Below are positions 8,277-54,145 of a DNA stretch of 64,000 bases, one piece after another (the stretch's first letter is position 1; each line of letters starts with the position of its first letter). The notes below the pieces were generated by a model, which was given only the letters and a program-made list of their open reading frames with translations, had not been told where the DNA came from and made no database searches. The position numbers were made by a program, and so were the translations under genes. The stretch is taken from assembly GCF_053078305.1 (NCBI RefSeq), contig NZ_CP166879.1; one strand, written 5' to 3'.

Positions 8277-9458
8277 TCATGCCTCTTTGACCCACAGCTG
8301 CGGAAAACGTGCTGGTGCAAAACGCAGGGTTATGATCATCAGCCCAACGACGCACAGCGCATGAAATGCCCAGTCCATCAGGTAATTGCCGCTGATACTA
8401 CGCAGCACGCCAGAAAACCACGGGGCAAGCCCGGCGATGATAAAACCGATCCCCTGCATAAACGCCACCAGCTTGCCAGCAATAGCCGGTTGCACAGAGT
8501 GATCGAGCGCCAGCAGCAAACAGAGCGGAAATGCGCCGCCCAGACCTAAACCACACACCATCGCCCACAATACCGGCAATTGCAGCGGCAGCCAGATAAA
8601 GCCGCAGAAACCCACCAGTTGTAACGCCAGTGCCAACAGCAAAAGTTTGCGCCGATCCTGATGGCGAGCCATAGCAGGCATCAGCAAAGCTCCTGCGGCT
8701 TGCCCAAGCGTCATCAATGCCAGCAAGGAACCGCTGTACTGCGCGCTGGCACCAATCTCAATATAGAAAGCGGGTAACCAGGCAATCAGGCTGGCGTAAC
8801 CACCGTTAATCAGACCGAAGTATAGGCCCAGCGTCCAGGCGCGGGGAGTAAATACCACGCGAACCGGAGTGGTTGTTGTCTTGTGGGAAGAGGCGACCTC
8901 GCGGGTGCTTTGCCACCACCAGGCAAAGAGCGCAACAACGGCAGGCAGCGCCCACCAGGCGAGTGTTTGATACCAGGTTTCGCTATGTTGAACTAACCAG
9001 GGTGTCAGGGCGGCACCAAGTCCACCGCCGCCCATCAGAGCCGCGGACCACAGCCCCATCACCAGTGGCGTGCGCTGCTGAAACCGCCGTTTAATCACCG
9101 AAGGCATCACCGCCTGAATGATGCCGATCCCCACCCCACCGAGCAGTGCGCTGCTAAGCAGCAGCGCACTTTGGGGGTAAAGCTCACGCATCAATGCACC
9201 GACGGCAATCAGTAACAAACTGATGGCGACGCTGCGACGTTCGCTGACATGCTGATGAAGCCAGCTTCCGGCCAGCGCCAGCCCGCCCATGGTAACCACC
9301 GGCAGAGCGGTCAACAGGGCAGCCACGCTAAAGCTCATTCCGCTTGCCTGGCGCAATTGCGGTAGCAGTGGACCGACGGAGGTGAGCAGTGGTCGCATAT
9401 TAAGACCAATCAGCACCAGAACCAGCAGTATCGTGAACGTCTTTTGATGGTTGCGCAT
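8277..9458 (-). CDS. cynX: Cyanate transporter (MFS)
   Basis: Multi-pass membrane protein immediately downstream of cynS; matches remembered CynX; exact start among N-terminal Met codons uncertain. Confidence 0.9.
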   Translation of the reverse strand: MRNHQKTFTILLVLVLIGLNMRPLLTSVGPLLPQLRQASGMSFSVAALLTALPVVTMGGLALAGSWLHQHVSERRSVAISLLLIAVGALMRELYPQSALLLSSALLGGVGIGIIQAVMPSVIKRRFQQRTPLVMGLWSAALMGGGGLGAALTPWLVQHSETWYQTLAWWALPAVVALFAWWWQSTREVASSHKTTTTPVRVVFTPRAWTLGLYFGLINGGYASLIAWLPAFYIEIGASAQYSGSLLALMTLGQAAGALLMPAMARHQDRRKLLLLALALQLVGFCGFIWLPLQLPVLWAMVCGLGLGGAFPLCLLLALDHSVQPAIAGKLVAFMQGIGFIIAGLAPWFSGVLRSISGNYLMDWAFHALCVVGLMIITLRFAPARFPQLWVKEA

Positions 9459-9463
9459 GGCTG

Positions 9464-9952
<489 letters not shown>

Positions 9953-14298: not shown

Positions 14299-14451
14299 GA
14301 AATTCCCCCTTTTTGCTGTTTGAAACCCAAAAAATCCGCCGCATTCTATTCATCTGAAGATAAAAAGCAATCGTTTTCGTGGGGAAATATATTTTTTATA
14401 TGAATGAGTGCAAAAAGGTGGGGGAAAAATTATCGGTGTAAAAACAGTGGG

Positions 14452-14812
14452 TAGGCCTGATAAGACGCGTCAGCGTCGCATCAGGCAACTGCGCATGGTG
14501 TCGGATGCGGCGCGAGCGCCTTATCCGACCTACGGTTCAGGCCTGTAGGCATGATAAGACGCGTCAGCGTCGCATCAGGCATCTGCGCATGGTGTCGGAT
14601 GCGGCGCGAGCGCCTTATCCGACCTACGGTTCAGGCCTGTAGGCATGATAAGACGCGTCAGCGTCGCATCAGGCATCGGCACACGGTGTCGGATGCGGCG
14701 CGAGCGCCTTATCCGACCCACGGTTCAGGTCCGTAGGCATGATAAGACGCGCCTGCGTCGCATCAGGCATCGGCGCATGGTGCCGGATGCGCCACGCGAC
14801 GCATCCGACAAT
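14452..14812. repeat. Tandem REP/BIME cluster (about 4 units of ~90 bp)
   Basis: Repeated units of ggcctgataagacgcgtcagcgtcgcatcaggc...tgtcggatgcggcgcgagcgccttatccgacctacggttcag between codB and prpE. Confidence 0.9.
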
Positions 14813-23482: not shown

Positions 23483-23728
23483 CTACGTAATCAACCTGAT
23501 TTGCCGAATCCCGACCATCGGCGATGATAGCCCCCGTAATGCGTGGTCCTTATTTCCGATAAGTTTACTTGAGTCTTTAGCTTCCCATTTCAGCCCACTC
23601 TCCCCTGTGTGGGCTTTTTTCATTGATCTGACCCGTCCTGAATAGCCAAACAATGGCAATGTTCCACTTTGCAGGGATGATAATAAGGGGATCTGATTCA
23701 GAAGAGTTTTGAAAAGTTGGACCGCCAT
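23483..23728 (-). CDS. yahM: Small protein YahM (uncharacterised)
   Basis: Position between yahN and yahL; an 81-aa product results if the second Met of the 91-aa track ORF is used. Confidence 0.5.
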   Translation of the reverse strand: MAVQLFKTLLNQIPLLSSLQSGTLPLFGYSGRVRSMKKAHTGESGLKWEAKDSSKLIGNKDHALRGLSSPMVGIRQIRLIT

Positions 23729-24140
23729 CGAGGCCTCGAACCCCGTACCATACAACAATCCTGGTTGTCGTCTGCTCTTCCTGATGAGCTAATGGCGGTT
23801 TTTGATATGAGCCTTACAGCATATTTTCTGTCAGGCTTGAGTGCGATGCGTAAGATACAGAAAAGACCCCACACAAACATGATGGAATTATGATTTTTTT
23901 CATATGAATGTCAACCCACACATTCACAAAACATCTGCATGAGATCATTTTTTATACACCGCATGGCTGCGAAACCACTACTGGTGCTTTTTTAAGCGAA
24001 GTGTCGCCGATCACAACAAAATATCGGCGAAAAAAGAGATGGAATGCCAGTTGGCATACAGATATACAGATGAAATGATTACCTGCATTGCGATTCACTC
24101 TCTGGTGGAATAACAACTTGCAGGTGGAACCCTTTCTGAA

Positions 24141-24956
24141 CTAAAGAGTGTAGCGAATTTTAACGTGCTTATTTACAGGATAATATCTGTCACCTAATTC
24201 CTGCACTCTATTAGATATCCATTCATTTAATCGTGCATCATCTCTGTATGTTTTTACGTCCAGAACAGAGAGCAATAACATCACCAGTGATTCAGGAAAA
24301 ACAGGGTAGATATTTTTTAAGTGTAATAATAATCCATGCGCAAGCGCTTGCTTAATGGGCGCGTCTGTCTCCGGAATAGACGACATTTCGCGAAGCCATT
24401 TTTCCACATGCATACACTCTTTCCCTTTAGGGAAAAGTCTCAGCAAAGGCATATGGTGTTCAAGAAGAATACATTTGCAATCTGTTCGCACTGAATTGAT
24501 AAACTGCACTAATTTCTTAAGCCCGGTAAAGCGTCCAGCCTGCACATTTGCTTTAATATCAAGAAACGCATCATCCTGGTCATATACCCAAACTGTCCCT
24601 TTTTGATTTTCAAGTATGCGAAAAACAAACTTAACCGGGTGATCAGGGTAATCCATCCAGTCATAAAATCCAGGGAAATCATTAAACTGCACATTTATGG
24701 TGAGTGCGTTATCGTCTGACCACTCACAGTCTCGTACGGCAGCCATGAGATGAATGAGTTTGTCGTCATCGACTAAATCATCACGACAATCATAAGGATA
24801 ATCATAATATTGTTTAATCAAAACCTTGAATATATCGACACAGGAAACCAGGGAGCTTTTGATATCCTCTGGTAACTGATTGTTTTTAACCGTATTAAGT
24901 ATGCTTTGTTGCGTATATGGCATCAAATTATTGCGCGGAGCTTTTAATGATATCAT
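24141..24956 (-). CDS. yahL: Uncharacterised protein YahL
   Basis: 271 aa ORF in AT-rich DNA; size and position match yahL. Confidence 0.8.
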   Translation of the reverse strand: MISLKAPRNNLMPYTQQSILNTVKNNQLPEDIKSSLVSCVDIFKVLIKQYYDYPYDCRDDLVDDDKLIHLMAAVRDCEWSDDNALTINVQFNDFPGFYDWMDYPDHPVKFVFRILENQKGTVWVYDQDDAFLDIKANVQAGRFTGLKKLVQFINSVRTDCKCILLEHHMPLLRLFPKGKECMHVEKWLREMSSIPETDAPIKQALAHGLLLHLKNIYPVFPESLVMLLLSVLDVKTYRDDARLNEWISNRVQELGDRYYPVNKHVKIRYTL

Positions 24957-25198
24957 CGCGATCTCTCTTAAATAAAAATAAACGTCGCAGATAATAAAGC
25001 TCTAATTAAACCAGGCACTATCAGAAATCGCTCATAACTAACGTGAGAAGTATTGTGTACTGGAGGGAGTTAATTTAACAATTTGAATTTACGTTATAGG
25101 TTTTACTGCTACTTTGATATTATTTCGCTCTCCTTAACTAAAAAGTTAAGTGGAGAGCGAAGTTAATATGTTAAATCACAGGGTATTTATTAATTTTT

Positions 25199-26248
25199 TC
25201 AGTCTGTTAGTGTGCGATTATCGATAACAAAACGATATTTCACATCACCGCGCAGCATTCGCTCATAGGCTTCATTAATTTGATCGGCCCGAATCATCTC
25301 TATATCAGCCACGATGCCATGTTCGGCGCAAAAATCGAGCATCTCCTGAGTTTCTGGAATGCCGCCAATCATAGAACCGGCTATCGCACGGCGTTTCATG
25401 ATCAGGTTGAAAACTTCCGGCGATTTATGCGGTGTCGCAGGCGCACCAACCAGCGTCATGGTGCCATCACGCTTCAGCAAGGTGGTAAAATCGTCGAGAT
25501 TATGTGGCGCAGCTACTGTATTCAAAATGAAATCGAAACTCTTCAGATGAGCCGCCATCTCATCGGCATTGCGTGAGTTAACAACTTCATCGGCCCCCAG
25601 GGCTTTTGCCGCTTCGCGTTTTGCCTCAGAAGTGGTAAATGCCACCACATGTGCCCCCATCGCGTGGGCCAGCTTAATCCCCATATGTCCCAGACCGCCG
25701 ATGCCGACCACGCCCACTTTTTTACCCGGCCCGGCCTGCCAGTGACGTAGCGGCGAGTACGTGGTGATCCCTGCACACAACAAAGGAGCCACCGCCGCCA
25801 GCTGCTCTTGCGGGTGACGAATACGCAGAACATATCGCTCATGAACGACGATCTGTTGTGAGTAGCCGCCCAGCGTATGGCCCGGTTCGTCCGGCGTCGG
25901 CGAGTTATAGGTGCCGGTCATGTGATCACAGTAGTTTTCCAGCCCGTCTTCACACTCTTCGCAATGTTTACAACTGTCGACAATGCAGCCGACACCGACC
26001 AGATCGCCCAGCGCATGTTTTTCTACCTGATCACCAACGGCTACCACACGCCCCACAATTTCATGACCCGGCACGCAGGGGTAAACCGTCCCCGCCCACT
26101 CGGAACGGACCTGGTGGAGATCGGAATGGCAGACGCCACAGTAAGCGATTTCGATTTTGACATCATTCGGTCCCGGTTCACGCCGTGTGATATCCATCGG
26201 TTCAAGTGGTTGTTTAGCGGAATATGCACCAACAGCTTTGATCTTCAT
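25199..26248 (-). CDS. yahK: NADPH-dependent aldehyde reductase (Zn-dependent ADH family)
   Basis: 349 aa; MKIKAVGAYSAKQPLEPMDITRREPGPNDVKIEIAYCGVCHSDLHQ...; Rossmann motif GVVGIGGLGH. Confidence 0.95.
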   Translation of the reverse strand: MKIKAVGAYSAKQPLEPMDITRREPGPNDVKIEIAYCGVCHSDLHQVRSEWAGTVYPCVPGHEIVGRVVAVGDQVEKHALGDLVGVGCIVDSCKHCEECEDGLENYCDHMTGTYNSPTPDEPGHTLGGYSQQIVVHERYVLRIRHPQEQLAAVAPLLCAGITTYSPLRHWQAGPGKKVGVVGIGGLGHMGIKLAHAMGAHVVAFTTSEAKREAAKALGADEVVNSRNADEMAAHLKSFDFILNTVAAPHNLDDFTTLLKRDGTMTLVGAPATPHKSPEVFNLIMKRRAIAGSMIGGIPETQEMLDFCAEHGIVADIEMIRADQINEAYERMLRGDVKYRFVIDNRTLTD

Positions 26249-26334
26249 TGTGTTTACTCCTGATTAGCTATGTGTATTTGGCGACGCCTGATATGTCATC
26301 GCGGCAAAACGCGTCCATTGAATATAGCCAATAT

Positions 26335-27321
26335 TTAAACCACCCGATCCAGCCCCAACATGCCGCGAGCCTGAATGAAACAAAGCAGCAACGTTCCCCA
26401 TAAGGCCATCGTCAGGTAGGGGCTTATACCGAGAATATTGAAGCCGCTTTCAATAATTTGCAGAAGAAACAGCGCCAACACCATACCAATTATCCGCCCG
26501 CTGCCGCCGTCCGGATTAACCCCGCCGAGTACTGCCGCGAGGATTGACACCAGCAAGTACGATTCGCCATAAGAGGCCTTAGCCGAGTTGAGTTTCGACA
26601 TCATCAAAAATGCCGCTACCGCACAAAGCAAGGCGGAAATGACATAAACCCAAATCAGCACCCGACGAGTGTTAATGCCGGAGTAAAGTGTTGCTCGTTC
26701 GTTAGACCCAATCAGGTAAATGGCTTTACCGAGCGGCGTTTTCTCCAGCAATACCCACAGCCCCAGTGCCACTGCGGCAAACAACCACATCGGTAGCGGA
26801 ATACCGAACCATTGCGCATGATTCAACCACAACACCCATGAGGGATAATTGGCAATGGCGCTACCGCCTGTCACCAGAATATTTATCCCTTTGAGCAACG
26901 TCATCATCCCAAGCGTTGCAAGAATTGGCGACACTCGAATACCAGCAATCAATACGCCGTTACATAAACCGATTATCACCGCCGCGCCAGCGCCCGCCAG
27001 TAACGTAGCGACAACCGTAGCAATACCCGGTGGATACTGAGTCGCCACCCACGCCATCACCAGTGAACAGGCGTTAGCAGTGGCTATAATTGACAAGTTA
27101 ATGCCACCGCAAAGCATGGTCACCGCCATAGCCAACGCCAGAATGCCCAGCACGGGCATTTGCGAAGCGACGGACTGGAAATTACTTATCGACCAGAAAA
27201 TCTCCGGCATAGTAATGCTGAACGCGGCAACAGTTAACACCAGCAGGCCGATCAAGTAAAACTCAACGTTATTACGCCACGATTTTTTCATAGCAGACTC
27301 CGGTTCTGATGCTGACTCCAC
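26335..27321 (-). CDS. Sugar ABC transporter permease (CUT2 family)
   Basis: 328 aa multi-pass membrane protein; overlaps the preceding permease gene; absent at this position in K-12. Confidence 0.85.
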   Translation of the reverse strand: MESASEPESAMKKSWRNNVEFYLIGLLVLTVAAFSITMPEIFWSISNFQSVASQMPVLGILALAMAVTMLCGGINLSIIATANACSLVMAWVATQYPPGIATVVATLLAGAGAAVIIGLCNGVLIAGIRVSPILATLGMMTLLKGINILVTGGSAIANYPSWVLWLNHAQWFGIPLPMWLFAAVALGLWVLLEKTPLGKAIYLIGSNERATLYSGINTRRVLIWVYVISALLCAVAAFLMMSKLNSAKASYGESYLLVSILAAVLGGVNPDGGSGRIIGMVLALFLLQIIESGFNILGISPYLTMALWGTLLLCFIQARGMLGLDRVV

Positions 27322-28259
27322 GCCGTGGCACTAATGCTGGCAACGATGATGATGCCGGTGATCAATGTTTGCCAGTAAGACGAGACTCCCAATAAATTTA
27401 GCCCGTTTTGCATCACTGCCAACAACACCACGCCGAGCAAAGTACCGGTTAACGTGCCGCGCCCGCCGAGCAAACTAGTGCCGCCAAGCACCACCGCAGC
27501 CAGTACTGTCAGCTCATAACCCAGAAGAGAATCGGGGGCGACAGTCATCACCGTCCACGACTGCACTACACCCGCAGCGCCAGACATCAATCCCATATAG
27601 CCATAGACGAAAAGTTGCAGTTTCAGCACGCTAAAGCCGATGCGACTGGCTGATTCGCGGTTCCCGCCAAGGGCATAAATTTTGCGCCCTACACTGGTGA
27701 AATTCATGATAAACGCTGTTAGCAGCACCACCGTAATCATGGCGATCAGCGGCAGACCAAGGCCATAGTCATAGCCATCAGCATCGGTGTACTTGAACAA
27801 CATAACCCCCAGCTCAAACCACGGCGGAAAGTCGTACAGCCACACACCTTTACTCAACCATAACAGCAGGCCATAGAAAATATTCAGCGTCGAGATAGTG
27901 ATGATGATAGAAGGCACCCGTAGGCGATTAACCAGTAAGGCGTTAATTAAGCCAAGTAAAATGCCGATGCAGCCTGCCAGTGCAAACGCGACAGCGAAGT
28001 TGCCACCAATTTTTTGCAGCAACAGCACCATGCCGTATTGCGCAATGATGGTCATTGCTGGAAACGAAATATCAATTCCACCGGAAATCAACACCACAAA
28101 CAAACCACAGGCGAGAATAGTCAACATGGCATAGTTATTGGCGAGATCGTACAAATTACCGAATGTCAGAAACTCGTCGCTGCGCCAGGCAAGGCCAACA
28201 AACAGCACCACAATCAGTAATGCCAGCCAGAATTCATGGCGTTTTTTCAGTTCAGCCAT
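27288..28259 (-). CDS. Sugar ABC transporter permease (CUT2 family)
   Basis: 323 aa multi-pass membrane protein; overlaps the ATPase stop. Confidence 0.85.
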   Translation of the reverse strand: MAELKKRHEFWLALLIVVLFVGLAWRSDEFLTFGNLYDLANNYAMLTILACGLFVVLISGGIDISFPAMTIIAQYGMVLLLQKIGGNFAVAFALAGCIGILLGLINALLVNRLRVPSIIITISTLNIFYGLLLWLSKGVWLYDFPPWFELGVMLFKYTDADGYDYGLGLPLIAMITVVLLTAFIMNFTSVGRKIYALGGNRESASRIGFSVLKLQLFVYGYMGLMSGAAGVVQSWTVMTVAPDSLLGYELTVLAAVVLGGTSLLGGRGTLTGTLLGVVLLAVMQNGLNLLGVSSYWQTLITGIIIVASISATAWSQHQNRSLL

Positions 28260-29736
28260 TTACCACCTCCGCAATCCTGGCCTGAGAACTGCTGTCAGGC
28301 AGGAAGCTATGGGTGATCTGACCTTTTTGCATTACCAAAATCCGGTGGCTTTGATACCACGCTTCTTCAATTTCATCGCAGATCATCAATACCGCAATGC
28401 CATGAGCCGCCAGATCGCTGATAATGCCGTATATTCCTGCTTTGTTGGCGATATCAACACCGACTGTCGGGCTATCGAGAATCAACAGTCGTGGCCCAAT
28501 CGCCAGCCATTTGGCGATCGATACTCGCTGCGCGTTACCACCAGAAAGCGTATTCACCGGGAGATGAGGATCAGAGACTTTGATGGTCAATGCCTTGATT
28601 AGCCTGTCCACCAGGTCACGCACTTTAGCTTCACTCAGAAAGCCGAAGCGATCTTTTACCTTGTGAAAAACAGTGCTAATGATGTTGTCTTCAATAGATT
28701 GCGCCATCACCAAACCGCGCGACATGCGATCTTCCGAAACATAACCAATACCGTGGCGGATGGCGTCCTGGTTACTATGCAGTGTAACCGGCTGGCCGTT
28801 GATGAGGATCTCGCCAGCATCCGGTCGGGTCATACCAAAGAGACTCAGACATAATTCCGTGCGCCCCGCACCAAGCAGGCCAACAATCGATACCACTTCG
28901 CCCGCTTCCACCCGCAAGTTAATATTTAGATATTCCCCATGACGACTTAAATTACGCACCTCCAGCACCGGGGTGCTGGATTTTCCCTGCCACAACTCTC
29001 GCACCTGATATTCAAACTCCTGGCCGGTCATCAGGAAACCGAGTTGTTTTGTGGTCATCTCTGCAGCCGGAAAAGTCCCGACCAGCTCACCATCTTTCAG
29101 CACTGAAATACGGTCGGAAACTTCCATCACTTCTTCCAGACGATGACTGACGAAGACCACGCAGATCCCGCGTTCACGCAATTGATGCACCACCTGTAAT
29201 AACCCTTGCACTTCCTGATGGGTCAGCGAAGCGGTTGGTTCATCCATCACGATCAACCGTGCGTCCTGCGCCAGTGCACGGCAAATAGCCACCAGCTGAC
29301 AGCGGGCAATTGAAAGCTCAGAAACGAGTGTATCCAGTGGCAATGTGACGTTAATACTGGTCATTGCCGCCTGCGCCACCTCACGCAGACGACGGCGGTT
29401 AACAAACAGACCGTGGTGATAGTGATTCACGGCGATATTCTCCCAGACACTCAGGTTAGGAAATAAAGAGAGGTCCTGATAAATCACCTGAATCCCCTGC
29501 GCCACCGAAGCGGCGGGTGTCAGCTTTGACCAGTTTTTCCCACCAAGCGTAATTTCCGCTCCCTCATCCGGGCGATAAACACCGGACATAATTTTAATCA
29601 ACGTCGATTTACCACAGCCGTTTTGCCCGGCAAGGCAGTGCACTTCACCCGACATAAAGTCGAGAGAAACATCGCGCAGCGCTCGCGTGGCATGAAACGT
29701 TTTGTTGATATGACGAAGGGAAAGGAAGGTTTCCAT
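28252..29736 (-). CDS. Sugar ABC transporter ATP-binding protein (two fused NBDs)
   Basis: Walker A GQNGCGKST and a second NBD (GLLGAGRTE); LSGGNAQR signature; start taken at ATG 29736 with AGGGGA upstream (track ORF starts at TTG 29751). Confidence 0.88.
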   Translation of the reverse strand: METFLSLRHINKTFHATRALRDVSLDFMSGEVHCLAGQNGCGKSTLIKIMSGVYRPDEGAEITLGGKNWSKLTPAASVAQGIQVIYQDLSLFPNLSVWENIAVNHYHHGLFVNRRRLREVAQAAMTSINVTLPLDTLVSELSIARCQLVAICRALAQDARLIVMDEPTASLTHQEVQGLLQVVHQLRERGICVVFVSHRLEEVMEVSDRISVLKDGELVGTFPAAEMTTKQLGFLMTGQEFEYQVRELWQGKSSTPVLEVRNLSRHGEYLNINLRVEAGEVVSIVGLLGAGRTELCLSLFGMTRPDAGEILINGQPVTLHSNQDAIRHGIGYVSEDRMSRGLVMAQSIEDNIISTVFHKVKDRFGFLSEAKVRDLVDRLIKALTIKVSDPHLPVNTLSGGNAQRVSIAKWLAIGPRLLILDSPTVGVDIANKAGIYGIISDLAAHGIAVLMICDEIEEAWYQSHRILVMQKGQITHSFLPDSSSQARIAEVVNG

Positions 29737-29784
29737 AACATCCCCTGGCAATAAGAATCGGGGCTTTCGCCCCGAAGAAATGGA

Positions 29785-30771
29785 TTAATAAAGTGAGTCG
29801 ATATTGTCTTTGTTGACCAGTAATACCTTATGGAAACGGATAATTCGCTTATCCATATCTACGTCGGCCTTACCCAGATTCTGCATTTCTAATCCAGGTT
29901 TGATCTCTTCACCCTTCAGCAACGTGCTGGCGACGGCTGCGAGTGCGTAACCTGCAGAGGCCGGATCGTAAGTAATCCCTTCGGTGATATCACCACTTTT
30001 AATCAGTGATGCCGCCTGTGAAGGGATCATCATGCCATAGACTGCGACTTTATTTTTCGCCCGTTTCTCTTTCACCGCACGTCCCGCGCCAATCGGACCG
30101 TTTGAACCAAAGGAGACAACCGCTTTCAAGTCAGGATAGGTTTTCATCAGGTCCAGTGTAGTACGACGTGAGTCATTCACACTCTCGGCAACCGGCATGC
30201 GGCGGGTAACTTCATGCATATCCGGGTAATGCTCTTTCTGGTATTTCACCAGCAAGTCAGCCCATAAGTTATGCTGCGGCACGGTCAAACTACCCACGTA
30301 AATCACATAGCCGCCCTTGCCACCCATGCGTTTCGCCATATGCTCAACATATTCAGCGGCAAATTTTTCGTTATCAATGATTTCGATATCCCAGTTAGCA
30401 CTTGGCTGACCGGGGGATTCGTTGGTCAGAACCACAATTCCGGCATCTCGCGCTTTTTTGAATACCGGTTCCAGCACGTTGGCATCGTTTGGCACGATAG
30501 TAATTGCATTAACCTTACGGGCGATTAAATCCTCAATAATTTTAACTTGTTGCGGAGCATCAGTACTTGAAGGCCCCACCTGTGAGGCATTAACACCAAA
30601 GGCTTTACCCGCCTCAACCACACCTTCGCCCATGCGATTAAACCACGGCATACCATCGACTTTAGAAATATTCACCACGACTTTTTCCGCTGCCTGGAGC
30701 GGCGCAGAAATTAGCGCAGCGCCTAATAACAGCGAAGACACCATATTGATAACAAAACGTTTATTCATCAT
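29785..30771 (-). CDS. Periplasmic sugar-binding protein (RbsB/YtfQ-like)
   Basis: 328 aa with signal peptide MMNKRFVINMVSSLLLGAALISAPLQA; periplasmic binding protein type I fold. Confidence 0.85.
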   Translation of the reverse strand: MMNKRFVINMVSSLLLGAALISAPLQAAEKVVVNISKVDGMPWFNRMGEGVVEAGKAFGVNASQVGPSSTDAPQQVKIIEDLIARKVNAITIVPNDANVLEPVFKKARDAGIVVLTNESPGQPSANWDIEIIDNEKFAAEYVEHMAKRMGGKGGYVIYVGSLTVPQHNLWADLLVKYQKEHYPDMHEVTRRMPVAESVNDSRRTTLDLMKTYPDLKAVVSFGSNGPIGAGRAVKEKRAKNKVAVYGMMIPSQAASLIKSGDITEGITYDPASAGYALAAVASTLLKGEEIKPGLEMQNLGKADVDMDKRIIRFHKVLLVNKDNIDSLY

Positions 30772-31021
30772 TTCAGCCTCATTGCAGGGTAGTCAGGAAG
30801 TGTTCGCCCAAATTAGCGCGCTGGAGAGAATGAGAATTTTCGAATATTTTTATGCAGAATAAACAGCTCTATTTCAGGCAGCTATTAAAAATATGGTTAT
30901 AAATATGGACAAAACGGGCAGCAATAATAAGTGTGACATTCATCACGTAAAAAATAGCAAAATAAACAAAATTAGCGATATTTTATGTTTGTGAGCTTAT
31001 TTCGTGTAGATAAATAGTTAT

Positions 31022-31432
31022 CTACACAACGTCAATAAGGGCATATTCTTCAAAGATAACGTCCATTTCTGGTGAATAGCTTCCTTCTGCCTGGAAAAAA
31101 CGACGGTGTTCATTACGCCAATATTCAAGACTGAGGTCACCTTCACCTTCCTTACGGGCAAGCTCCGCGGTGACATCAGAAAAGCGCAGTAAATGCAGGC
31201 CAATCACTCTGATAACACATACAGGCTCACCACGGCTATTTTCTACAATCTTATACTCACCAATCATCGGAAATGCGTTGTCTTCAATACATCCCGCCAG
31301 CGAACCACAGGAAGCTGTTTTAACACCAGTCGCAATCAACGTTGCGAGGTGATCGGCCAACGCGGCTGAATCGCCAAAAGTACAAAAGGAAGCATGGGGA
31401 TATTTTTGTGAGAATTTTTCTTTTATGGTCAT
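31022..31432 (-). CDS. ASCH-domain (PUA-like) protein
   Basis: MTIKEKFSQKYPHASFCTFGDSAALADHLATLIATGVKTASCGS... resembles ASCH/YqfB-type domains; start uncertain (ATG 31432 or TTG 31462). Confidence 0.6.
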   Translation of the reverse strand: MTIKEKFSQKYPHASFCTFGDSAALADHLATLIATGVKTASCGSLAGCIEDNAFPMIGEYKIVENSRGEPVCVIRVIGLHLLRFSDVTAELARKEGEGDLSLEYWRNEHRRFFQAEGSYSPEMDVIFEEYALIDVV

Positions 31433-31730
31433 GGCAATATTTTTGCGATTACGGAAAAACAAATCACATCTTAATTACTGTTGGTAACCATCAGCAAGAG
31501 TATCATTGGTTTTTCGATACTGAATCTTTTTTATCCGAAGCAGGTCACATTTATGGCCTGATAAATACCTTTGTTAAAACTCACTTTTGTGTATTTCTCT
31601 CAAATAATCCCCTGGAAATTATGCCGGGAGATTATAAAGTTCAGGATCATTCATTAGCAAACCATTCCCGCCCCACTCCCTGGGGCTTAAATCTCTTACT
31701 ATTCACCGTTGCAGGCGTTTCAAATGCGCA

Positions 31731-33113
31731 TCAACCTGCCACACTCCCCCACACCAGTTGCCCTTTATGGAACGTTGCGGTTCTCGGCGAGATACGCGCC
31801 ACCGCCTCGGCGGAACAGGAGGCGTCCACCAGCACAAAGCTGGCGTCATCCTGCGCTTTTGGCCATACACGCTCGCCTTTTTCATTCAGCGGCAATACAT
31901 CGCCAGTGGCTAGAAACAGCGAACGGGAGAGGTTCTGTTCGTTAGGACGAATATAGAGCTGCGCGTAGAGATTGGCTTTTTCCAGCATGTCGCCCAGACC
32001 ATAAGGCGACCAGTGGTCGATAACGCTGTCAGTGCCAGTCATCACTTTTACGCCTTTGTCGTGCAACTGTTTGAGCGGCATATGCAGCGTGCCAATCGGC
32101 ACTGTCGAGGCGATAGAAATTTGCTGCACCGCCATCCGGTGCGCCAGTTCATCTACCTGTTGTTCGTTGAGCGTTGCCAGCGCAAAGGCGTGACTGATGG
32201 TCAGCTTGCCCTTCAGCTGTGGCGTTTTCTCTACCGTTTCAACCATATAATTGATGGCCGCCACGCCTGCCGGAGTGGTTTCGTGCAGGTGAATATCGAC
32301 GCCTTTGTCGTAGTCCATCGCAATCTGAAACATGGTGTCGAGGGATTTTTCCATCGCGCCATCAACACTGGTCGGGTCCAGGCCGCCGACATAATGCGCC
32401 CCCGCCTGCATCGCTTCACGCATCAAAGGTTCAGATTTCGACAGTAGCAAACCGTGCTGCGGGAAGGCGACGATTTCACACTCAAAGCCCGCCTGACGTC
32501 GCGCCAGCACCGCCTGCAAATTTTGCAGATTTTTCAGGCCGGAAACCGGTTCGATATTGCAGTGGCTGCGGGCAATGGTGGTGCCTTTCGACTGCAATAA
32601 ATCAATCAGTTTTTCTGCCCGCTCCTGAGTGTACGGTTGCAGCTCCGGCAGCATTTTCTGCTCGAGTTTGATCATGTCCTGGATGGTGGTGCCTGCCGGG
32701 CGATTGAGCGAGCGCCACGGCCCGCCGTAAAAGGTTTTGTCGAGATGAATATGCATGTCGCGGGTGGTGGGCAGCATCAGCTTATCGCCAGCGTCATAGT
32801 GCGGCAGCGTGGCACCCGGGTGCTGCTTATTCTCGCGCAGTGCGACAATTTTGCCGTTCTGAATCTCCACGGTCTGGCGCGCCGTGCGGGTCTGCACCGC
32901 CACGCCATTTTCGTAGTCAAATCCAGTTTCCAGCAGCACGTTGTCGAGATAGTAATGCGGGTCAGTGATTTTCATGGTGTTGTTCGCTTCGCAGTTTGTG
33001 GTGCCAGAGACCGCCGCATGGGCGAGCGGCACAGAGGTACCAAACAGCGCGGCGGCGGTGACCATCTTACCGCTCTGGCTCAGAAATTCACGGCGGCTAT
33101 TGCTTTCTTTCAT
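31731..33113 (-). CDS. yahJ: Amidohydrolase-family deaminase
   Basis: 460 aa with Tat-like signal (SRREFLSQSGKMVTAAALFG); metal-dependent hydrolase motifs (HIHLD). Confidence 0.9.
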   Translation of the reverse strand: MKESNSRREFLSQSGKMVTAAALFGTSVPLAHAAVSGTTNCEANNTMKITDPHYYLDNVLLETGFDYENGVAVQTRTARQTVEIQNGKIVALRENKQHPGATLPHYDAGDKLMLPTTRDMHIHLDKTFYGGPWRSLNRPAGTTIQDMIKLEQKMLPELQPYTQERAEKLIDLLQSKGTTIARSHCNIEPVSGLKNLQNLQAVLARRQAGFECEIVAFPQHGLLLSKSEPLMREAMQAGAHYVGGLDPTSVDGAMEKSLDTMFQIAMDYDKGVDIHLHETTPAGVAAINYMVETVEKTPQLKGKLTISHAFALATLNEQQVDELAHRMAVQQISIASTVPIGTLHMPLKQLHDKGVKVMTGTDSVIDHWSPYGLGDMLEKANLYAQLYIRPNEQNLSRSLFLATGDVLPLNEKGERVWPKAQDDASFVLVDASCSAEAVARISPRTATFHKGQLVWGSVAG

Positions 33114-33122
33114 CTTACGTCC

Positions 33123-34073
33123 TTACGTTTTAATAATATGGGTGCCCGTTTCGCCACGCAGCGCCGCGGGCAGGCATTCCGGCGTGGTGATAATCACTTC
33201 TTTACCGCCCTGTTCCAGGAACGTCAGGCTGGCGATGATTTTTGGCAACATGCTGCCGGGCGGGAAATGTCCTTCCTGCATATAGCGAGTCATGGTGGCA
33301 ATATCCACCCGATCGAGCGCCTGCTGCTCGGGTTTGCCAAAATGAATACACACTTTTTCCACGCCGGTGGTGATCACCAGAATGTCGGCGTGAATTTCAC
33401 GGGCCAGCAGCGCGGTAGAGAGATCTTTGTCGATAACCGCGTCCACGCTTTGGTAATCTCCCGCGTCAGTACGCACCACAGGAATTCCGCCGCCGCCCGC
33501 GCCAATCACCACAAAGCCTTGTTGGATCAGCGCCTTAATGGCAGGTGCTTCGACAATACGTTTCGGTTCCGGCGAGGCGACCACGCGGCGATAGCCCCGT
33601 CCGGCATCTTCAACAAAACGCCAGTCAGGGTTTGCCTTTTGTAGTTCGTCACGCTGGCTGTCACTAAAGAATGCGCCGATGGGCTTGGTGGGATGGGCAA
33701 ATCCCGGATCGTTTTTATCCACTTCCACCTGAGTCACCACGGTGACGGCTTTTTTCTCGCCGTGACGCGCCAGTCGGTTGTTCAGCGCCTGTTGGATCAG
33801 ATAGCCAATGCCGCCTTGCGTATCCGCTACACAGTTCGCCAGCGGCGTTAATGGCAGCCCTTCGCGCTCGTGGGCAATCTCCGCACGGCGTAAATCCAGC
33901 CCGACCTGCGGCCCGTTGCCGTGGGTCAGCACAATGTCGTAATCGGAAGCCAGCATTTCCAGCACCGTATCGGCGACGGCTTTCACCGCCTCCGCCTGAT
34001 GCTCAATCGACTGGCTGGCATTATCTTTGATAATGCTGTTGCCACCAATGGCAACGACCACAAGCTCTTTCAT
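33123..34073 (-). CDS. yahI: Carbamate kinase-like protein
   Basis: 316 aa; MKELVVVAIGGNSI... amino acid kinase fold; GGGIPV motif. Confidence 0.92.
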   Translation of the reverse strand: MKELVVVAIGGNSIIKDNASQSIEHQAEAVKAVADTVLEMLASDYDIVLTHGNGPQVGLDLRRAEIAHEREGLPLTPLANCVADTQGGIGYLIQQALNNRLARHGEKKAVTVVTQVEVDKNDPGFAHPTKPIGAFFSDSQRDELQKANPDWRFVEDAGRGYRRVVASPEPKRIVEAPAIKALIQQGFVVIGAGGGGIPVVRTDAGDYQSVDAVIDKDLSTALLAREIHADILVITTGVEKVCIHFGKPEQQALDRVDIATMTRYMQEGHFPPGSMLPKIIASLTFLEQGGKEVIITTPECLPAALRGETGTHIIKT

Positions 34074-34111: not shown

Positions 34112-34486
34112 CAACGCCAGACTGCCTGATGCGCTACGCTTATCAGGCCTACAATTCTCGCGCCACTCGTAGGCCGGATAAGGCGTCCACGCCGCATCCG
34201 GCAATGGTGACAAATGCCTGATGCGCTACGCTTATCAGGCCTACAAATTCTCGTGCCATTCGTGGGCCGGATAAGGCGTTCACGCCGCATCCGGCAATGG
34301 TGACAAATGCCTGATGCGCTACGCTTATCAGGCCTACAGATTCTTGCGCCATTCGTAGGCCGGATAAGGCATTCACGCCGCATCCGGCAATGGTGACAAA
34401 TGCCTGATGCGCTACGCTTATCAGGCCTACAAATTCTTGCGCCACTTGTAGGCCGGATAAGGCGTTCACGCCGCATCCGGCATGAA
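34112..34486. repeat. Tandem REP/BIME cluster (about 4 units)
   Basis: Repeated gcctgatgcgctacgcttatcaggcctaca...gtaggccggataaggcgttcacgccgcatccggca between yahI and yahG. Confidence 0.9.
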
Positions 34487-41876: not shown

Positions 41877-41954
41877 CTTGATTAAATCTTGTGCGCCAGC
41901 TAAATCTGCGAGTCTTCACTCTGACGGATAAAGCTGGCTGCAAGAAAATGACAC

Positions 41955-41986
41955 AGAGAGCCGAATTATCTCCCGTTCGGCTCTCT
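41955..41986 (-). terminator. Stem-loop downstream of the autotransporter gene
   Basis: Perfect 11-bp inverted repeat agagagccgaa / ttcggctctct with 10-nt loop, directly after the ehaA-type stop; flanking runs are only moderately T-rich. Confidence 0.5.
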
Positions 41987-42008
41987 ATCCTTTTACTCAT
42001 TATTCAGA

Positions 42009-45000
42009 TCAGAATTGCCACTTAATGCCAACCATTGCAGAGGTGTCATTATATCCCCTATCGGCAACCTGAACGCCCACATTCCCCCAGACATTCAGGT
42101 TGGCATTTAGCTGTCCTTCCACCCCGGTTTTTATCTCAGCAATATTTCGGGCTCCATCCTGAGTGACGGACACGCCATCCATACTGGTGCTGAAATCCTT
42201 ACTGTTATGCAGCCAGTTCACTTCTACAAACGGCTGGAACTCGCGGGATTTACCGTCATCCATTTTATGGTGGCTCTTCAGCCAGTTTTTTACGCCAAGT
42301 CGGGTTTGAACATTGCCATCACCGTTGCTATGAACGAGGGTTCCGTTGCTTTCGCGGTGCTTATCAGCTTTGACTCCCATCCAGGTAACCTGTGCTTGCG
42401 GCTGAACATACCATTCATTACGCGTTCCCTGGCTGCCATTAAATTCAGCTAATTTGTGTTTGTATCCAGCTTCCAGTGAAGCGGTAAGTCCTTTTGATTT
42501 ATAGGATTCACTTTGTAAGTCATCCCCTTTCACTGTGTTATCAAACCAGCTGTACTGCGCCCAACTGTCGAGATACGCGCCATTACGCGACTCGTCATCG
42601 GCATACCAGGTGGCATAGAGGCCTGTGCTATATCCGTTCACACTCGCTTTTGCACGATAACCGGTTCGCGAGGAAATGGTTTTGCTGTCGCTGTTGCCAT
42701 ATCCCGCCATGACCCCAACATGCCAGCTGTCGCTGCCGTTTTGGCTCCACTGCGCGACATCGCCTCCCAGTTGCAGAACATAGCGATTGCTTTGGGTTTT
42801 CAGCTGGCCGCTGCCATCACGCCATTTATTATGACCACCTTCATGGCGCATCCACATAGTGGTTTGTTTCTGCTCACCCGTCACCATGTCGGTATAGTAC
42901 GTATTACCCAGACGCTCATGCAGACGCGTGGTGAACATGGTATTCGCTGCTGCAAGGTTCGCAATGTAGCTACCCGCCTCCGGTCGCAGGTCATTATCCA
43001 CATTCAGATCCGGACCCGGCGTAGGTGTCGGGTTAGGGTTCGGCTCTGGATTCGGGTTTGGCTCCGGATTCGGCATCGGGTCTGGCTCCGGCTGCAGTTC
43101 AGGAGAATCACTGCCGCTGGTCAGATACCAGTTACCACTATTTGCCCCTTGTCCACGCGCGAGAGTGTAGTCATACGCCCCCGCAACGATACGCCCAGCC
43201 TGAACAAATTCGCCCTCAGACTTACCGTCTACATGGATAAGTTCGATACCGTTAAGGGTTTTCGCACCTGTACCGCCAGCGTTATTCACCGTAACGGCAG
43301 TCGTGCCGCTGGTATCGCCCTCGACAACCAATTTATCGGTTACTGAGTCATCGCCATTCAGTACCGTATTCATTACTAGTTGACCGTTATTACCGTGGTA
43401 GTTCCCCTTCACCACTAACACATTGCCAGCTTGCTGTCCTGACATTCCGGTCATCAGCGTACCGTTGTTGGTCAGATTGCCGCCCAGGGTGTAATTCACA
43501 GACGCAGCCGCTCTTTTTTCAGCGCTATTATTCAACGCCAGGGTACCGTTGTTCTCAACGTTTGCGCTACCCAATCCCTGCGCATGACTTACCAGGACAT
43601 TAGCCGAATTAGCAATGTTCACATTCGCCGTCAGGTTGCTGTTATCGCCCGCGATGTCCAGCGTGCCGCCCTGAATATTCAGCTCTCCGCTCCCCGTTAA
43701 CGAACCGGTTGAAGTGCCCCCGTTGGTAACCGTCAGACTGCCGCCATTTAAGCTCAGCAGTGAATCGGCGCTGCCATTGAGCGTGCCCACGGTCTGGCTG
43801 TGACCATTCATATCCAGTTCAGTCTCTGCCGCCAGACGCAGTTCATGGGTATTACCCAACACGTTATCGTTATTCAACAAAAGCGTCCCACTGCGCAGAT
43901 CGGTAACACCGGTATAGTCGTTGTCTTTGTTAGAAAGCGATACGGTCTGACCCTTCTGGCTGCTGAATGCCAGGTCACCACTGCCGGTAATCTTTGCGCT
44001 GAGATCGGCGGCATTCTCGCTTTTACCGTTAGAGCTCAGCACCAGAGCATCGCTGTCGGTAGCGTGTAAATCAAGCTGGGTCAGGCCGTAACCGATATAC
44101 AGACCGTCATTGTTTACCCCACTCGTCAGACGATAGTCGTAAGTGCCGACGGCCGCTTTTTGCCCATTCTGCTGAATATCACGTTGGGCGCTGCTGGAGA
44201 GGATTTGCCCATTTTTATCCTGCAATTGCAGATTGCCCGCATCGCCCAGAACTTCCGCACCTTGCGCATCAACCAACTTAATGGTGCTGTTACCATCATC
44301 GACTTCAGTGAGCGATAACGCAGAGTCAATATCACGAGATACTGAGCTTACAACGTCACTGTCAGAAACCTGAATCACACCCTCGCCGCGCAAATCCAGC
44401 GTTTTACTAACGTTGACCGTCCCTTCTGTCATCTGTGCACCTGCTGTCAGGGCACCAAAATCAACGGTTCCGCCGGAGAATCCCAAAGTGCTAATAGAAT
44501 GAGCGCCCTTACCCACTGTTACCTGGCTTCCCTGACCCGCAGTGATCCCGCCTCTCTGCAGAAACTCAGCATTCTTTTCCAGGTTAAATGCCGTGTTCTG
44601 GAACGCCAGTGAACCCTGGAACCAGTCTGTATAAGCAAACTCATCGAAGGAGAATTCGTGATTCCCCATGTTTATTTCAACAATGCCTCTACCTTCAAGA
44701 TCGTTATCAAATACCCAATCTTTGTTGGCATTAATTTGCAATTTGCCATCAACATCCAGCTCTGCACGACCGATATTCTTGTCTTCAGAAATAACAGCGA
44801 CAGCACCAGAAGCAACATCAATATATCCGCTGAATGCATAGTTATTGCCGGTCAACTCCACCGTCCCACTGTCGATACTTATTGTACCGTTGCCAGAGAT
44901 CTTATTGGCAAAGGTCATGCTATCGTCAGCCTTCAGGTGTAATTTCCCGCGGTTGGTGATCTCTGCTGTACCTATATTTTGGGTGATCCCTAAAGCGCCA

Positions 45001-45992
45001 TTTTGCTCAATTTTGACTTTACCACTAAAGGCAGAGTTATCCCCGGTTAAGTAAGTCGTGCCATTGAGCGCATTGATATAGCCTAGGCCCTCGCTGCCAC
45101 TGACAATATCCGCGGAAATAGTCGCGTCTTTATCCGTGTGGTTTAAGGTGATTTTCTTATCGGATGTCGAAGCCCACACAAACTCAATTTTTTCGGCATC
45201 AATAATCCCTGCCGCCTTCGCAGCACTTCCTTCCTGTGCACCTAACGCTAACTCAGAGTTGGTGCTTAAACTAATTTTCGGTGCGGATATTTTACCTCCA
45301 TCTGATACGACTAATGTTGTATCAGAACGTTGGTCGTAATAACCCAGGCTAATATGTTCACGAGCATTAACTTCACCACCGTTATTAACCGACAGGAACT
45401 GATTACCGCCATATCCGCCGTAAACGCCCATAAAGAAGGTCCCGGCATTTACCTGACTACCTTCGCCGCTTACATTCCCCTGCGTATAAGTCAGACGACT
45501 GGTGCCCTTAACATGAATTTTGCCGCCGTTGGAGACATTAAAATAGCCTTGATCATGTCTCATGCCTGAGTTTGACTCATACAAATCATCAGCATATAAC
45601 TCGCTGCCAGCATTGGAGACATTCAGGAAGCCCGTACCTTTCAGCAAAAAGTTAAGTGGGCCATTGATTGTTACCTTTCCTCCGGTAATATCCAACCCAC
45701 CACCAGACGCGAGAGTCAGACGCGGACGGGAAGTATCTGTCGCATTGATTACCAGATTGGCATTGTCTGTCACCGTAATACGGTAATCGATGCTCTGGTT
45801 CTCTTTGCCAAAATCAATAGTTTTATCCTGGTTTACGATGACATCATCGGCGAATACCAGAGATGAATATAAACTTATCGCGCTAATTAAAACAGCCCGG
45901 GACTTTTTTCCTTTTACTCTGCTCCCCAGCTCCGAGCAGACGCTCCAACAGTTACGGGACCTGTTCCACTTTAGCCGATATATTTTATTCAT
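42009..45992 (-). CDS. ehaA: AIDA-I-type autotransporter adhesin (EhaA-like)
   Basis: 1327 aa from ATG 45992; extended signal peptide MNKIYRLKWNRSRNCWSVCSELGSRV; Gly/Asn/Thr-rich passenger; proline-rich linker PEPDPMPNPEPNPNPEPNPNPTPTPGP; C-terminal beta-barrel ending ...GIKWQF. No gene lies between pdeL and betT in K-12. Confidence 0.8.
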   Translation of the reverse strand: MNKIYRLKWNRSRNCWSVCSELGSRVKGKKSRAVLISAISLYSSLVFADDVIVNQDKTIDFGKENQSIDYRITVTDNANLVINATDTSRPRLTLASGGGLDITGGKVTINGPLNFLLKGTGFLNVSNAGSELYADDLYESNSGMRHDQGYFNVSNGGKIHVKGTSRLTYTQGNVSGEGSQVNAGTFFMGVYGGYGGNQFLSVNNGGEVNAREHISLGYYDQRSDTTLVVSDGGKISAPKISLSTNSELALGAQEGSAAKAAGIIDAEKIEFVWASTSDKKITLNHTDKDATISADIVSGSEGLGYINALNGTTYLTGDNSAFSGKVKIEQNGALGITQNIGTAEITNRGKLHLKADDSMTFANKISGNGTISIDSGTVELTGNNYAFSGYIDVASGAVAVISEDKNIGRAELDVDGKLQINANKDWVFDNDLEGRGIVEINMGNHEFSFDEFAYTDWFQGSLAFQNTAFNLEKNAEFLQRGGITAGQGSQVTVGKGAHSISTLGFSGGTVDFGALTAGAQMTEGTVNVSKTLDLRGEGVIQVSDSDVVSSVSRDIDSALSLTEVDDGNSTIKLVDAQGAEVLGDAGNLQLQDKNGQILSSSAQRDIQQNGQKAAVGTYDYRLTSGVNNDGLYIGYGLTQLDLHATDSDALVLSSNGKSENAADLSAKITGSGDLAFSSQKGQTVSLSNKDNDYTGVTDLRSGTLLLNNDNVLGNTHELRLAAETELDMNGHSQTVGTLNGSADSLLSLNGGSLTVTNGGTSTGSLTGSGELNIQGGTLDIAGDNSNLTANVNIANSANVLVSHAQGLGSANVENNGTLALNNSAEKRAAASVNYTLGGNLTNNGTLMTGMSGQQAGNVLVVKGNYHGNNGQLVMNTVLNGDDSVTDKLVVEGDTSGTTAVTVNNAGGTGAKTLNGIELIHVDGKSEGEFVQAGRIVAGAYDYTLARGQGANSGNWYLTSGSDSPELQPEPDPMPNPEPNPNPEPNPNPTPTPGPDLNVDNDLRPEAGSYIANLAAANTMFTTRLHERLGNTYYTDMVTGEQKQTTMWMRHEGGHNKWRDGSGQLKTQSNRYVLQLGGDVAQWSQNGSDSWHVGVMAGYGNSDSKTISSRTGYRAKASVNGYSTGLYATWYADDESRNGAYLDSWAQYSWFDNTVKGDDLQSESYKSKGLTASLEAGYKHKLAEFNGSQGTRNEWYVQPQAQVTWMGVKADKHRESNGTLVHSNGDGNVQTRLGVKNWLKSHHKMDDGKSREFQPFVEVNWLHNSKDFSTSMDGVSVTQDGARNIAEIKTGVEGQLNANLNVWGNVGVQVADRGYNDTSAMVGIKWQF

Positions 45993-46523
45993 CACAATCT
46001 CCAGCAATACATCCAAATAAAACCAAGATTGCATAAACAGCAACGCATTAAATGCCATTCCGGTTACTGTTCATCGCATATAAAAATTCAAAAATTTTGC
46101 ATAGCATTGGCAACCACATATCTGAGTATGTAGTTCAGAGGGTAATAAAATAGCAAGTTACTACTGAAAACTTATTTTAAGTTAACACTCTTAACTTTAT
46201 CATTACATTCCCCCCCAGTCTCTAATACCTGCGCATTATATGTATCCGGGAACTCAAATCAACTCAAAATATAAACAAAAGCAGGAGAAATACATTTAAT
46301 ATACAGCCGGTAAAAGTGGTAACTCTTATTAGGTATACAAATATAAGAATCGTCTTATTAATAAATATATAACTCTATAGGACTGAATCCATTCAGCTAA
46401 TACAAAATAAAATCGTTAATTAATAAAATATAAAATCATGAAGTGATACAAGAGGAATTTCAGGATATGACATGACAATCATATATAATATATGCATAAT
46501 TTTTTACAGCGAGTCAATGATTC

Positions 46524-46556
46524 CCGCGCCATATGCAAACATGGCGCGGTTTTATG
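46524..46556 (+). terminator. Rho-independent terminator-like hairpin next to the betT 3' end
   Basis: ccgcgccat-atgcaaac-atggcgcgg (9-bp GC-rich stem) followed by ttttatg. Confidence 0.55.
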
Positions 46557-46565
46557 CAATAACAA

Positions 46566-48599: not shown

Positions 48600-48727
48600 C
48601 CAGTATCCCCACTGTTATTGTTACCATTTAAAATCAAATTCGTAACAATTAAGACACATTTTATATTGAACGTCCAATCAATAACCGCTTTAATAGATAA
48701 ACAACGCTGATGAATGGAGTGGCGAAA

Positions 48728-49315: not shown

Positions 49316-49328
49316 CCGAGGAGACGTG

Positions 49329-50801: not shown

Positions 50802-50814
50802 CCAGGAGGTTTAT

Positions 50815-54133: not shown

Positions 54134-54145
54134 AACAGTACCTTC

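Follow-up and report, generated by a model that had tools for sequence, protein, structure and literature searches.

Gene content of the yahK-yahJ interval

We analyzed a 64,000-nucleotide stretch of DNA (the window) from contig NZ_CP166879.1 of RefSeq assembly GCF_053078305.1, and describe here the interval between yahK (25199-26248) and yahJ (31731-33113), which encodes a sugar ATP-binding cassette (ABC) transporter, AauABCD, and an ASCH-domain protein. All five genes lie on the minus strand. The gene aauA (Z0415; 29785-30771) encodes a 328-aa periplasmic D-ribulose/L-arabinose binding protein with a signal peptide; aauB (Z0416-7; 28252-29736 from the RefSeq start, with an open reading frame (ORF) to 29751) encodes a single 494-aa polypeptide with two fused ABC ATPase domains. 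The ORF list and NCBIfam profiles identify aauC (Z0418; 27288-28259, 323 aa) as the first permease gene and aauD (Z0419; 26335-27291 from the RefSeq start, 318 aa, within an ORF of 26335-27321) as the second. On the yahJ side of aauA is the ASCH-domain ORF, which spans 31022-31462 (146 aa) from a TTG start or 31022-31432 (136 aa) when begun, as in RefSeq, at the ATG at 31432. An original prediction, made from the sequence without database searches, had described this gene content, and the ORF list places each reading frame exactly where it had been put. It had also noted a YtfQRT-YjfF-like order, and the succession of substrate-binding protein (SBP), ATPase, permease and permease is indeed that of ytfQRT-yjfF; likewise, no regulator or mobility gene lies in cis inside the block, as it had observed.

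The aauC reading frame shares 4 nt with aauD and 8 nt with aauB, an arrangement that suggests translational coupling. Within the 48-bp spacer between aauA and aauB, a G+C-rich hairpin (TCGGGGCGAAAGCCCCGA, 29758-29775, minus strand) may act as an attenuator or as an RNA stabilizer through which binding protein is made in excess. The 86-bp spacer between aauD and yahK (26249-26334) showed nothing resembling a terminator, and L-arabinose-induced read-through into yahK is thus conceivable in aau-positive strains. The published list of differentially expressed genes, which may be incomplete, does not, however, contain yahK.

The transporter is the published Aau system

All four transporter proteins gave profile matches far beyond chance, in agreement with the CUT2 class first proposed for them. 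The binding protein matches RhaS/LsrB-type proteins (E values of 1e-32 to 1e-39 in NCBIfam), the ATPase matches AraG, YtfR and XylG end to end (1e-123 to 1e-126) as well as RbsA, also end to end, and the permeases match RbsC and AraH (1e-46 to 1e-48); families with a single nucleotide-binding domain (NBD) match AauB in two separate stretches. The set therefore has the make-up of a CUT2 transporter (TC 3.A.1.2), with a Peripla_BP_4-type SBP, a double-NBD polypeptide and BPD_transp_2 permeases, where the Pfam matches (PF13407, PF00005 and PF02653) were taken from a 96%-identical locus, L086. All four proteins score below every NCBIfam equivalog cut-off.

The block's transporter is the Aau (AauABCD) system of enterohemorrhagic Escherichia coli (EHEC) and is thus already known. 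Aau, for "accessory L-arabinose uptake," was described in EHEC O157:H7 as Z0415-Z0419 of O-island 17 (Cottam et al., Nat Commun 2024/2025; PMC11127945, PMC12307932). The AauA of the window aligns with PDB entry 9I1M over residues 1-328 on 1-328 with a score of 711 bits and 2 differences in 328 residues (N200D and D201V). In that crystal structure, alpha-D-ribulose is bound by Lys37, Trp43, Glu118, His167, Glu196 and Ser223 (PMC12307932), and all six contacts (K37, W43, E118, H167, E196 and S223) are kept here. Furthermore, both published primers fit the window, the forward one (atggctgaactgaaaaa...) at the MAELKK start of aauC and the reverse one of the Z0418-9 fragment at the 3' end of aauD, and both the four-gene order and the chromosomal site agree with O-island 17. 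Compared with the EHEC system, the one in the window shows no functional difference; what differs is the evolutionary reading, since the papers treat Aau as acquired and we treat it as ancestral and then lost.

With this identity, the substrate is already known and the missing regulator becomes AraC acting in trans. The substrate had initially been left open, a point now settled by the match of AauA to 9I1M: isothermal titration calorimetry gave a KD of 1.98 uM for D-ribulose and 598 uM for L-arabinose, a roughly 300-fold preference for D-ribulose (PMC12307932). In the published work, AauA captures alpha-D-ribulose in the periplasm, AauCD form the channel, and the double-ATPase AauB powers uptake; once inside the cell, D-ribulose receives a phosphate from AraB and is passed to the pentose phosphate pathway (PMC12307932). 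According to the Aau papers, a delta-aau mutant of EHEC loses competition in the mouse gut. The role of the transporter in EHEC gut colonization is relevant but already published. Our additions are the deletion scars, an intermediate allele, a probable AraC/CRP operator that is conserved, the recognition that a RefSeq name misleads, and the separation of the ASCH gene from the transporter; these are at the level of annotation, describe no new system and open no long-standing question.

The RefSeq product name for AauA, "autoinducer 2 ABC transporter substrate-binding protein," would make the binding protein part of an LsrB-type importer of autoinducer-2 (AI-2), and LsrB structures do appear as distant PDB matches of AauA (E of about 1e-22 to 1e-24). 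We regard this assignment as extremely improbable, since AauA reaches 111.7 bits against an LsrB equivalog cut-off of 384 and scores higher with RhaS, since the neighbors are yahK, the ASCH gene and yahJ, with no lsrK, lsrR, lsrF or lsrG adjacent, and since the crystal structure of AauA contains D-ribulose, contrary to an AI-2 reading. A rhamnose transporter (RhaSTPQ) was rejected as well, the binding protein scoring 136.1 bits against a RhaS cut-off of 342.25, as was a role in defense, for which PADLOC gave generic ABC-ATPase similarity for AauB alone and nothing for the other proteins.

Two observations on database records concern the same proteins. The "autoinducer 2" name assigned by the PGAP annotation pipeline (for example, at 8786-9769 of locus L001) probably misnames the protein systematically, in about 2200 complete genomes. 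A 4.7-kb contig labeled "MAG: Bacteroidales bacterium" (SFEK01000152.1) carries aauABCD at 99-100% protein identity to E. coli and is almost certainly a mis-binned E. coli contig. A literature search on 3D02, the structure of a Klebsiella orthologue, was without result.

Several CUT2 systems resemble Aau. The four-gene order is identical to that of YtfQRT-YjfF, the K-12 galactofuranose/arabinofuranose transporter, which is likewise induced by L-arabinose in published RNA-seq (PMC11127945) and whose YtfR is the second-best match of the Aau ATPase; the Aau permeases, however, reach 62-126 bits against YtfT and YjfF cut-offs of 363-535, and YtfQ is not among the binding-protein matches. AraFGH belongs to the same CUT2 class, with AraG the best NCBIfam match of the Aau ATPase and AraH that of one permease, whereas the Aau subunits fall below the Ara equivalog cut-offs, the Aau SBP is of the RhaS/LsrB rather than the AraF type, and Aau has two permease genes. 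The Rbl locus of Citrobacter rodentium likewise encodes a CUT2 transporter for D-ribulose but has its own regulation and a dedicated D-ribulokinase (PMC12307932), whereas AraC and AraB, which serve Aau, are encoded elsewhere. A group of loci with binding proteins of 58-60% identity (Citrobacter amalonaticus, Serratia, Pantoea and others) is probably of the Rbl type.

A predicted AraC/CRP operator upstream of aauA

A predicted control region, P_aau (30856-30947, minus strand), can be read in the 250-bp spacer upstream of aauA. It comprises a CRP site (CGTGATGAATGTCACA, 30947-30932), an araI1-like AraC half-site, I1 (TGCCCGTTTTGTCCATA, 30920-30904), 11 nt after the CRP site, a weaker half-site, I2 (TAACCATATTTTTAATA, 30899-30883), separated from I1 by the 4-nt spacer TTTA, and a -10-like TATTCT (30861-30856) located 21 nt after I2. 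The K-12 araBAD control region, read from the genome record, consists of CRP, 13 nt, TAGCATTTTTATCCATA, AGAT, I2, 20 nt and TACTGT; the order of CRP, I1, 4 nt, I2, about 20 nt and -10 is thus common to P_aau and K-12 P_BAD. The window contains the combined CRP+I1 pattern a single time, and 0 of 100 shuffles contain it; a lone half-site pattern turns up no more often than chance would predict.

When the sequences preceding aauA are aligned, the CRP half-sites do not vary among E. coli, a divergent Escherichia lineage, Klebsiella, Franconibacter, Mangrovibacter, Symbiopectobacterium and Aeromonas, and a TCCATA core is kept in all aligned genera except Aeromonas (TCCATG). A strict regular expression for the full CRP+AraC arrangement missed Mangrovibacter and other genera in which the alignment reveals it; we therefore used a shorter core motif with a background control, seeking the I1/I2 junction within 450 bp upstream of aauA (background probability of about 0.03 per 480 nt). 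The junction motif is present in 34 of 60 Aau-like loci with at least 65% identity, including those of Yersinia and Pasteurellaceae, and in none of 20 loci of the 58-60%-identity group, although the loci are phylogenetically related and these counts do not represent independent events. The same CRP/AraC operator would accordingly accompany the cassette across several bacterial families.

The P_BAD-like arrangement falls inside the 300 bp of a published reporter. This 300-bp P_aau fusion is induced by L-arabinose only and is dead in a delta-araC mutant, and L-arabinose raises Z0417 by 43-fold, Z0415 by 26.5-fold and Z0418 by 7-fold (PMC11127945 and its Supplementary Data). We infer direct action of AraC and CRP on a P_BAD-like operator (30883-30947), a proposal that fits the published genetics and would make AraC/CRP control, in a P_BAD-like order of CRP, I1, I2 and -10, common to Ara and Aau. 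We found neither this operator nor the neighboring ASCH gene mentioned in the Aau papers (PMC11127945, PMC12307932), nor the operator in Cottam et al. 2024 (PMC11127945) in particular.

Relation to the yah genes

The original prediction had suggested that the transporter may feed the adjacent yahJ-yahI-yahGFE cluster (a deaminase, a carbamate kinase and AllFGH-like proteins), with which it would be co-expressed. Adjacency and a shared minus-strand orientation are what this proposal has in its favor, and we find it very improbable, for neither the ligand, nor AraC control, nor the expression list, nor the gene neighborhoods provide a link. The Aau ligand is a pentulose or pentose according to the crystal structure and calorimetry (PMC12307932), and aau is controlled by AraC and L-arabinose (PMC11127945). 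The genes yahE-K are absent among those listed as differentially expressed, a list that may be incomplete and that does include yahO (-2.1) and yahN (-1.73) (PMC11127945 Supplementary Data). Between the yah and aau units lie a promoter-like site, a hairpin and 250 bp of A+T-rich spacer. The two units also occur apart, with aau lacking yahB-J in the E. coli-labeled assembly SCPM-O-B-8794 (locus L031) and yahB-J lacking aau in Escherichia sp. E2593, and yah genes never adjoin the cassette in 78 non-Escherichia loci.

The K-12 site is a deletion scar

The aau and ASCH genes are missing between yahK and yahJ in XL1-Blue (K-12) and in Nissle 1917. The original prediction had correctly placed the intact genes outside K-12, and took them to be an insertion in the source strain; the sequence of the empty site indicates the reverse. 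In XL1-Blue, the yahK-yahJ spacer is 376 bp long and consists, from the yahK side, of window positions 26249-26406, 63 bp of poor match, positions 31000-31071, 22 unmatched bp, and position 31670 onward. It thus retains the last 72 bp of aauD (26335-26406, annotated by RefSeq as a truncated pseudogene) and the last 50 bp of the ASCH gene together with a degraded copy of its palindrome. Nissle 1917 (phylogroup B2) has the same scar structure at 95% identity. The K-12 empty site is a deletion scar because the 3' ends of aauD and the ASCH gene remain in the spacer, and the same remnants in Nissle overturn the claim of an insertion. As to whether the transporter genes stand at this locus in K-12, the finding against which the original prediction was to be judged, remnants are there and intact genes are not, which refutes the prediction in part.

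Two deletions account for the scar. Deletion 1 (about 26407-30918, about 4.5 kb), with GGC microhomology at both edges, is common to K-12, Nissle and Escherichia sp. E2593; lost with it are aauD codons 1-294, all of aauC, aauB and aauA, the core promoter, and both AraC half-sites save for the last 2 bp of I1 (30919-30920), which lie outside. Deletion 2 (31072-31669, 598 bp) took out the ASCH promoter together with the ASCH gene, of which only the last 50 bp were spared. The segment is replaced by the 22 unmatched bp in K-12 and Nissle and is still present in E2593. K-12 homology resumes exactly at a G+C hairpin downstream of yahJ (GCCCCAGGGAGTGGGGC, 31670-31686, minus strand). The 22-bp filler matches nothing, and an origin of the 63-bp filler in the aau upstream region was considered and rejected (about 70% similarity, with an alignment score of 35 against a mean of 21.6 and a maximum of 36 in 200 shuffles). 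In E2593, yahJ is followed by an ASCH gene that is still intact, 61 bp of filler with homology to that of K-12, an aauD remnant whose breakpoint is the same as in K-12 (window position 26408), and yahK. This intermediate allele implies that the transporter was deleted first and the ASCH gene later.

The SCPM-O-B-8794 assembly provides a more distant view. It is about 89% identical to the window in core genes and holds aauABCD-yahK-yahL in collinear order, with DNA identities of 90.8-93.2% for aauA-D, comparable to the 88.8-93.1% of prpR, yahO, yahK and pdeL. A 100-bp ASCH remnant is fused to pdeL, from which it follows that this lineage instead lost yahB-J and most of the ASCH gene. Another candidate relative, L086, was set aside since it proved to be an E. 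coli assembly with 96% identity and very many frameshifts rather than a divergent lineage.

A survey of 5426 complete E. coli genomes found at least 80% of the deletion scar in 2803 (about 52%) and at least 80% of the 24000-34000 interval in 2205 (about 41%); the aau-specific segment is present in 2213 genomes and the ASCH-specific segment also in 2213. The shared scar and the matching segment counts point to essentially two alleles, with the aau-negative allele of single origin.

Aau is described in its papers as horizontally acquired (O-island 17), which would have aauABCD and the ASCH gene entering an originally empty yahK-yahJ spacer in the lineage of the source strain. K-12 and the majority of A and B2 strains do lack the block (our survey; PMC11127945), aau orthologues are scattered over genera without shared neighbors, and the ASCH gene and its promoter segment are A+T-rich (38-43% G+C). 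The aau genes themselves, however, have 48-53% G+C. This is close to the E. coli average. The block also lacks the hallmarks of an island, with no integrase, insertion sequence element, Rfam-supported tRNA or flanking direct repeat. The empty sites hold the 3' ends of aauD and the ASCH gene, contrary to a clean insertion target, an intermediate allele is known from E2593, and a lineage with about 10% divergence (L031) has aau at the same site with core-like divergence. A recent island is thus contradicted within E. coli, and we judge acquisition in this lineage improbable.

The arrangement yahJ-ASCH-aauABCD-yahK instead appears to be ancestral for E. coli and its closest relatives, and we infer that the K-12-type site arose from it by two deletions. 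The direction of the event is thereby corrected: K-12 lost the locus, and the source strain did not gain it. Beyond Escherichia, orthologues are 90-92% identical in Klebsiella pneumoniae, Franconibacter and Mangrovibacter, 82-86% in Symbiopectobacterium and Aeromonas, and 70-79% in Yersinia, Providencia and Pasteurellaceae. On balance, we lean toward Aau having long belonged to the AraC regulon rather than being an acquisition specific to EHEC. Its CRP/AraC operator would accompany the four genes throughout Enterobacterales and Pasteurellaceae, and the cassette would have stood between the ASCH gene and yahK before E. coli and its cryptic sister lineages diverged. About half of today's E. coli (among them K-12 and most A and B2 strains) would then descend from one allele that lost it in two steps. 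If so, L-arabinose-gated D-ribulose uptake would be an ancient conserved design and not a recent "hijack," and the correlation between LEE (the enterocyte effacement locus) and aau would reflect retention of aau rather than gain.

Two further observations concern SCPM-O-B-8794. At 7347-9656 of L031, pdeL directly adjoins the ASCH remnant, with ykgEFG only some 1 kb away from pdeL, a closeness implying that this assembly also lacks the ehaA-betTIBA-hyx segment (window positions of about 41880-59594). In addition, its yahL is 80% identical to that of the window in protein and 83% in DNA, compared to 89-93% for the neighbors, and marks a second variable segment adjoining the aau locus.

The ASCH gene

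The ASCH-domain ORF first seen in the sequence is borne out by a match to Pfam PF04266 (E of 4.5e-22, model positions 5-102 of 103). Relatives of the encoded protein are the 136-aa "YhfF-like" ASCH proteins that are common in Enterobacterales, and its nearest structures are 1T62 (E of 5e-19) and 3S9X (E of 1e-15), both structural-genomics ASCH proteins. A sigma-70-like promoter (TTGCTA-18-TATAAT, a 10/12 consensus match only; 31631-31660, minus strand) lies upstream of the gene, immediately beyond the G+C hairpin that follows yahJ. A perfect palindrome with a 12-bp stem (31002-31029, minus strand) overlaps the stop codon and extends just 3' of it; it has a folding energy of -13.2 kcal/mol (z of -4.3), and none of 200 shuffles was as stable. 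As the palindrome has no T-run, it might terminate transcription weakly or serve to bind a protein.

We asked whether the gene keeps company with aau or yahJ elsewhere. ASCH homologues in Yersinia, Kosakonia and Pseudenterobacter lie in unrelated neighborhoods, and 77 of 78 non-Escherichia aau-like loci have no ASCH gene within 10 kb, the exception being Serratia inhibens (L082), in which a homologue of 46% identity is found about 5.7 kb past the cassette end. A function shared with aau or yahJ was rejected on these grounds, and the ASCH gene appears to be an independent monocistronic unit with no demonstrable link to the transporter or the yah genes. Z0414, listed as a "hypothetical protein" and probably this gene, rises 3.7-fold with L-arabinose (PMC11127945 Supplementary Data); the rise is not read-through, because the gene lies upstream of P_aau, and may be indirect.

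As for its activity, the closest functional comparison is YqfB, an N4-acetylcytidine/N4-acylcytosine amidohydrolase whose catalytic residues are Lys21, Thr24, Arg26 and Glu74 (literature on YqfB). The GxKT part of the ASCH octapeptide is kept (G36-V-K38-T39) and an acidic EGEGD motif is present, whereas direct reading of the sequence places Ser41 where YqfB has Thr24 and Gly43 where it has Arg26. The protein is also longer (136 aa compared to about 103 aa), and no YqfB chain was among its PDB matches at E <= 1. That it is a small-molecule or RNA N-acyl amidohydrolase is accordingly a doubtful, if conceivable, assignment.

Assessment of the combined explanation

Taken as a whole, the explanation that the block holds the known Aau importer under a direct AraC/CRP operator, that the locus is ancestral and was lost by two deletions, and that the ASCH gene is independent seems to us highly probable. 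Of the original prediction, the gene content, class, order and absence from K-12 have stood, while the insertion, the open substrate and the feeding of the yah genes have not.

Several points weigh against this explanation. The operator is assigned from sequence only, I2 is a poor match to araI2 (6/17), and the CRP-to-I1 spacing is 11 nt in P_aau compared to 13 nt in P_BAD. The absence of the yah genes from the expression data rests on a supplementary gene list that may be incomplete. The alignment score of the 63-bp filler (35) is reached by the best shuffle (36). An older horizontal arrival into the Escherichia stem is possible, and the patchy, non-syntenic spread across Enterobacterales and Pasteurellaceae points there; the single scan of genome contigs gave one Escherichia representative with aauA, and the locus comparison left out E. 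fergusonii and E. albertii. Finally, Z0414 is taken to be the ASCH gene from the order of locus tags.

Other features of the window

On the other side of yahK, yahL (24141-24956) lies in a patch of 33-42% G+C (23750-25250), has no NCBIfam match and is missing from Nissle/B2 genomes. At 23718-23798 (minus strand), 2.5 kb from the block, ARAGORN called a tRNA-Ser(GGA) over the 5' end of yahM. This only tRNA call is probably a false positive, as Rfam gave none at its gathering threshold and RefSeq annotates none.

Two repeat arrays were found. At 34123-34482, 3.9 copies of a 93-bp unit containing repetitive extragenic palindromic (REP) sequences are arranged in tandem, with three matches to Rfam naRNA4 (RF02564), and represent the known REP325/naRNA4 element. 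The yahH ORF annotated within this array is probably not a real gene. The codB-prpE spacer (14451-14791) holds a second array, similar to REPs or bacterial interspersed mosaic elements, with a 94-bp period and 3.6 copies; it is about 74-78% identical to the yahH array and differs in copy number from strain TUM13936. Finally, an intact 776-aa ORF lies downstream of hyxA (56181-58511, plus strand); TUM13936, the closest complete genome, lacks about 1.8 kb at this position and carries there what is annotated as a truncated adhesin pseudogene.

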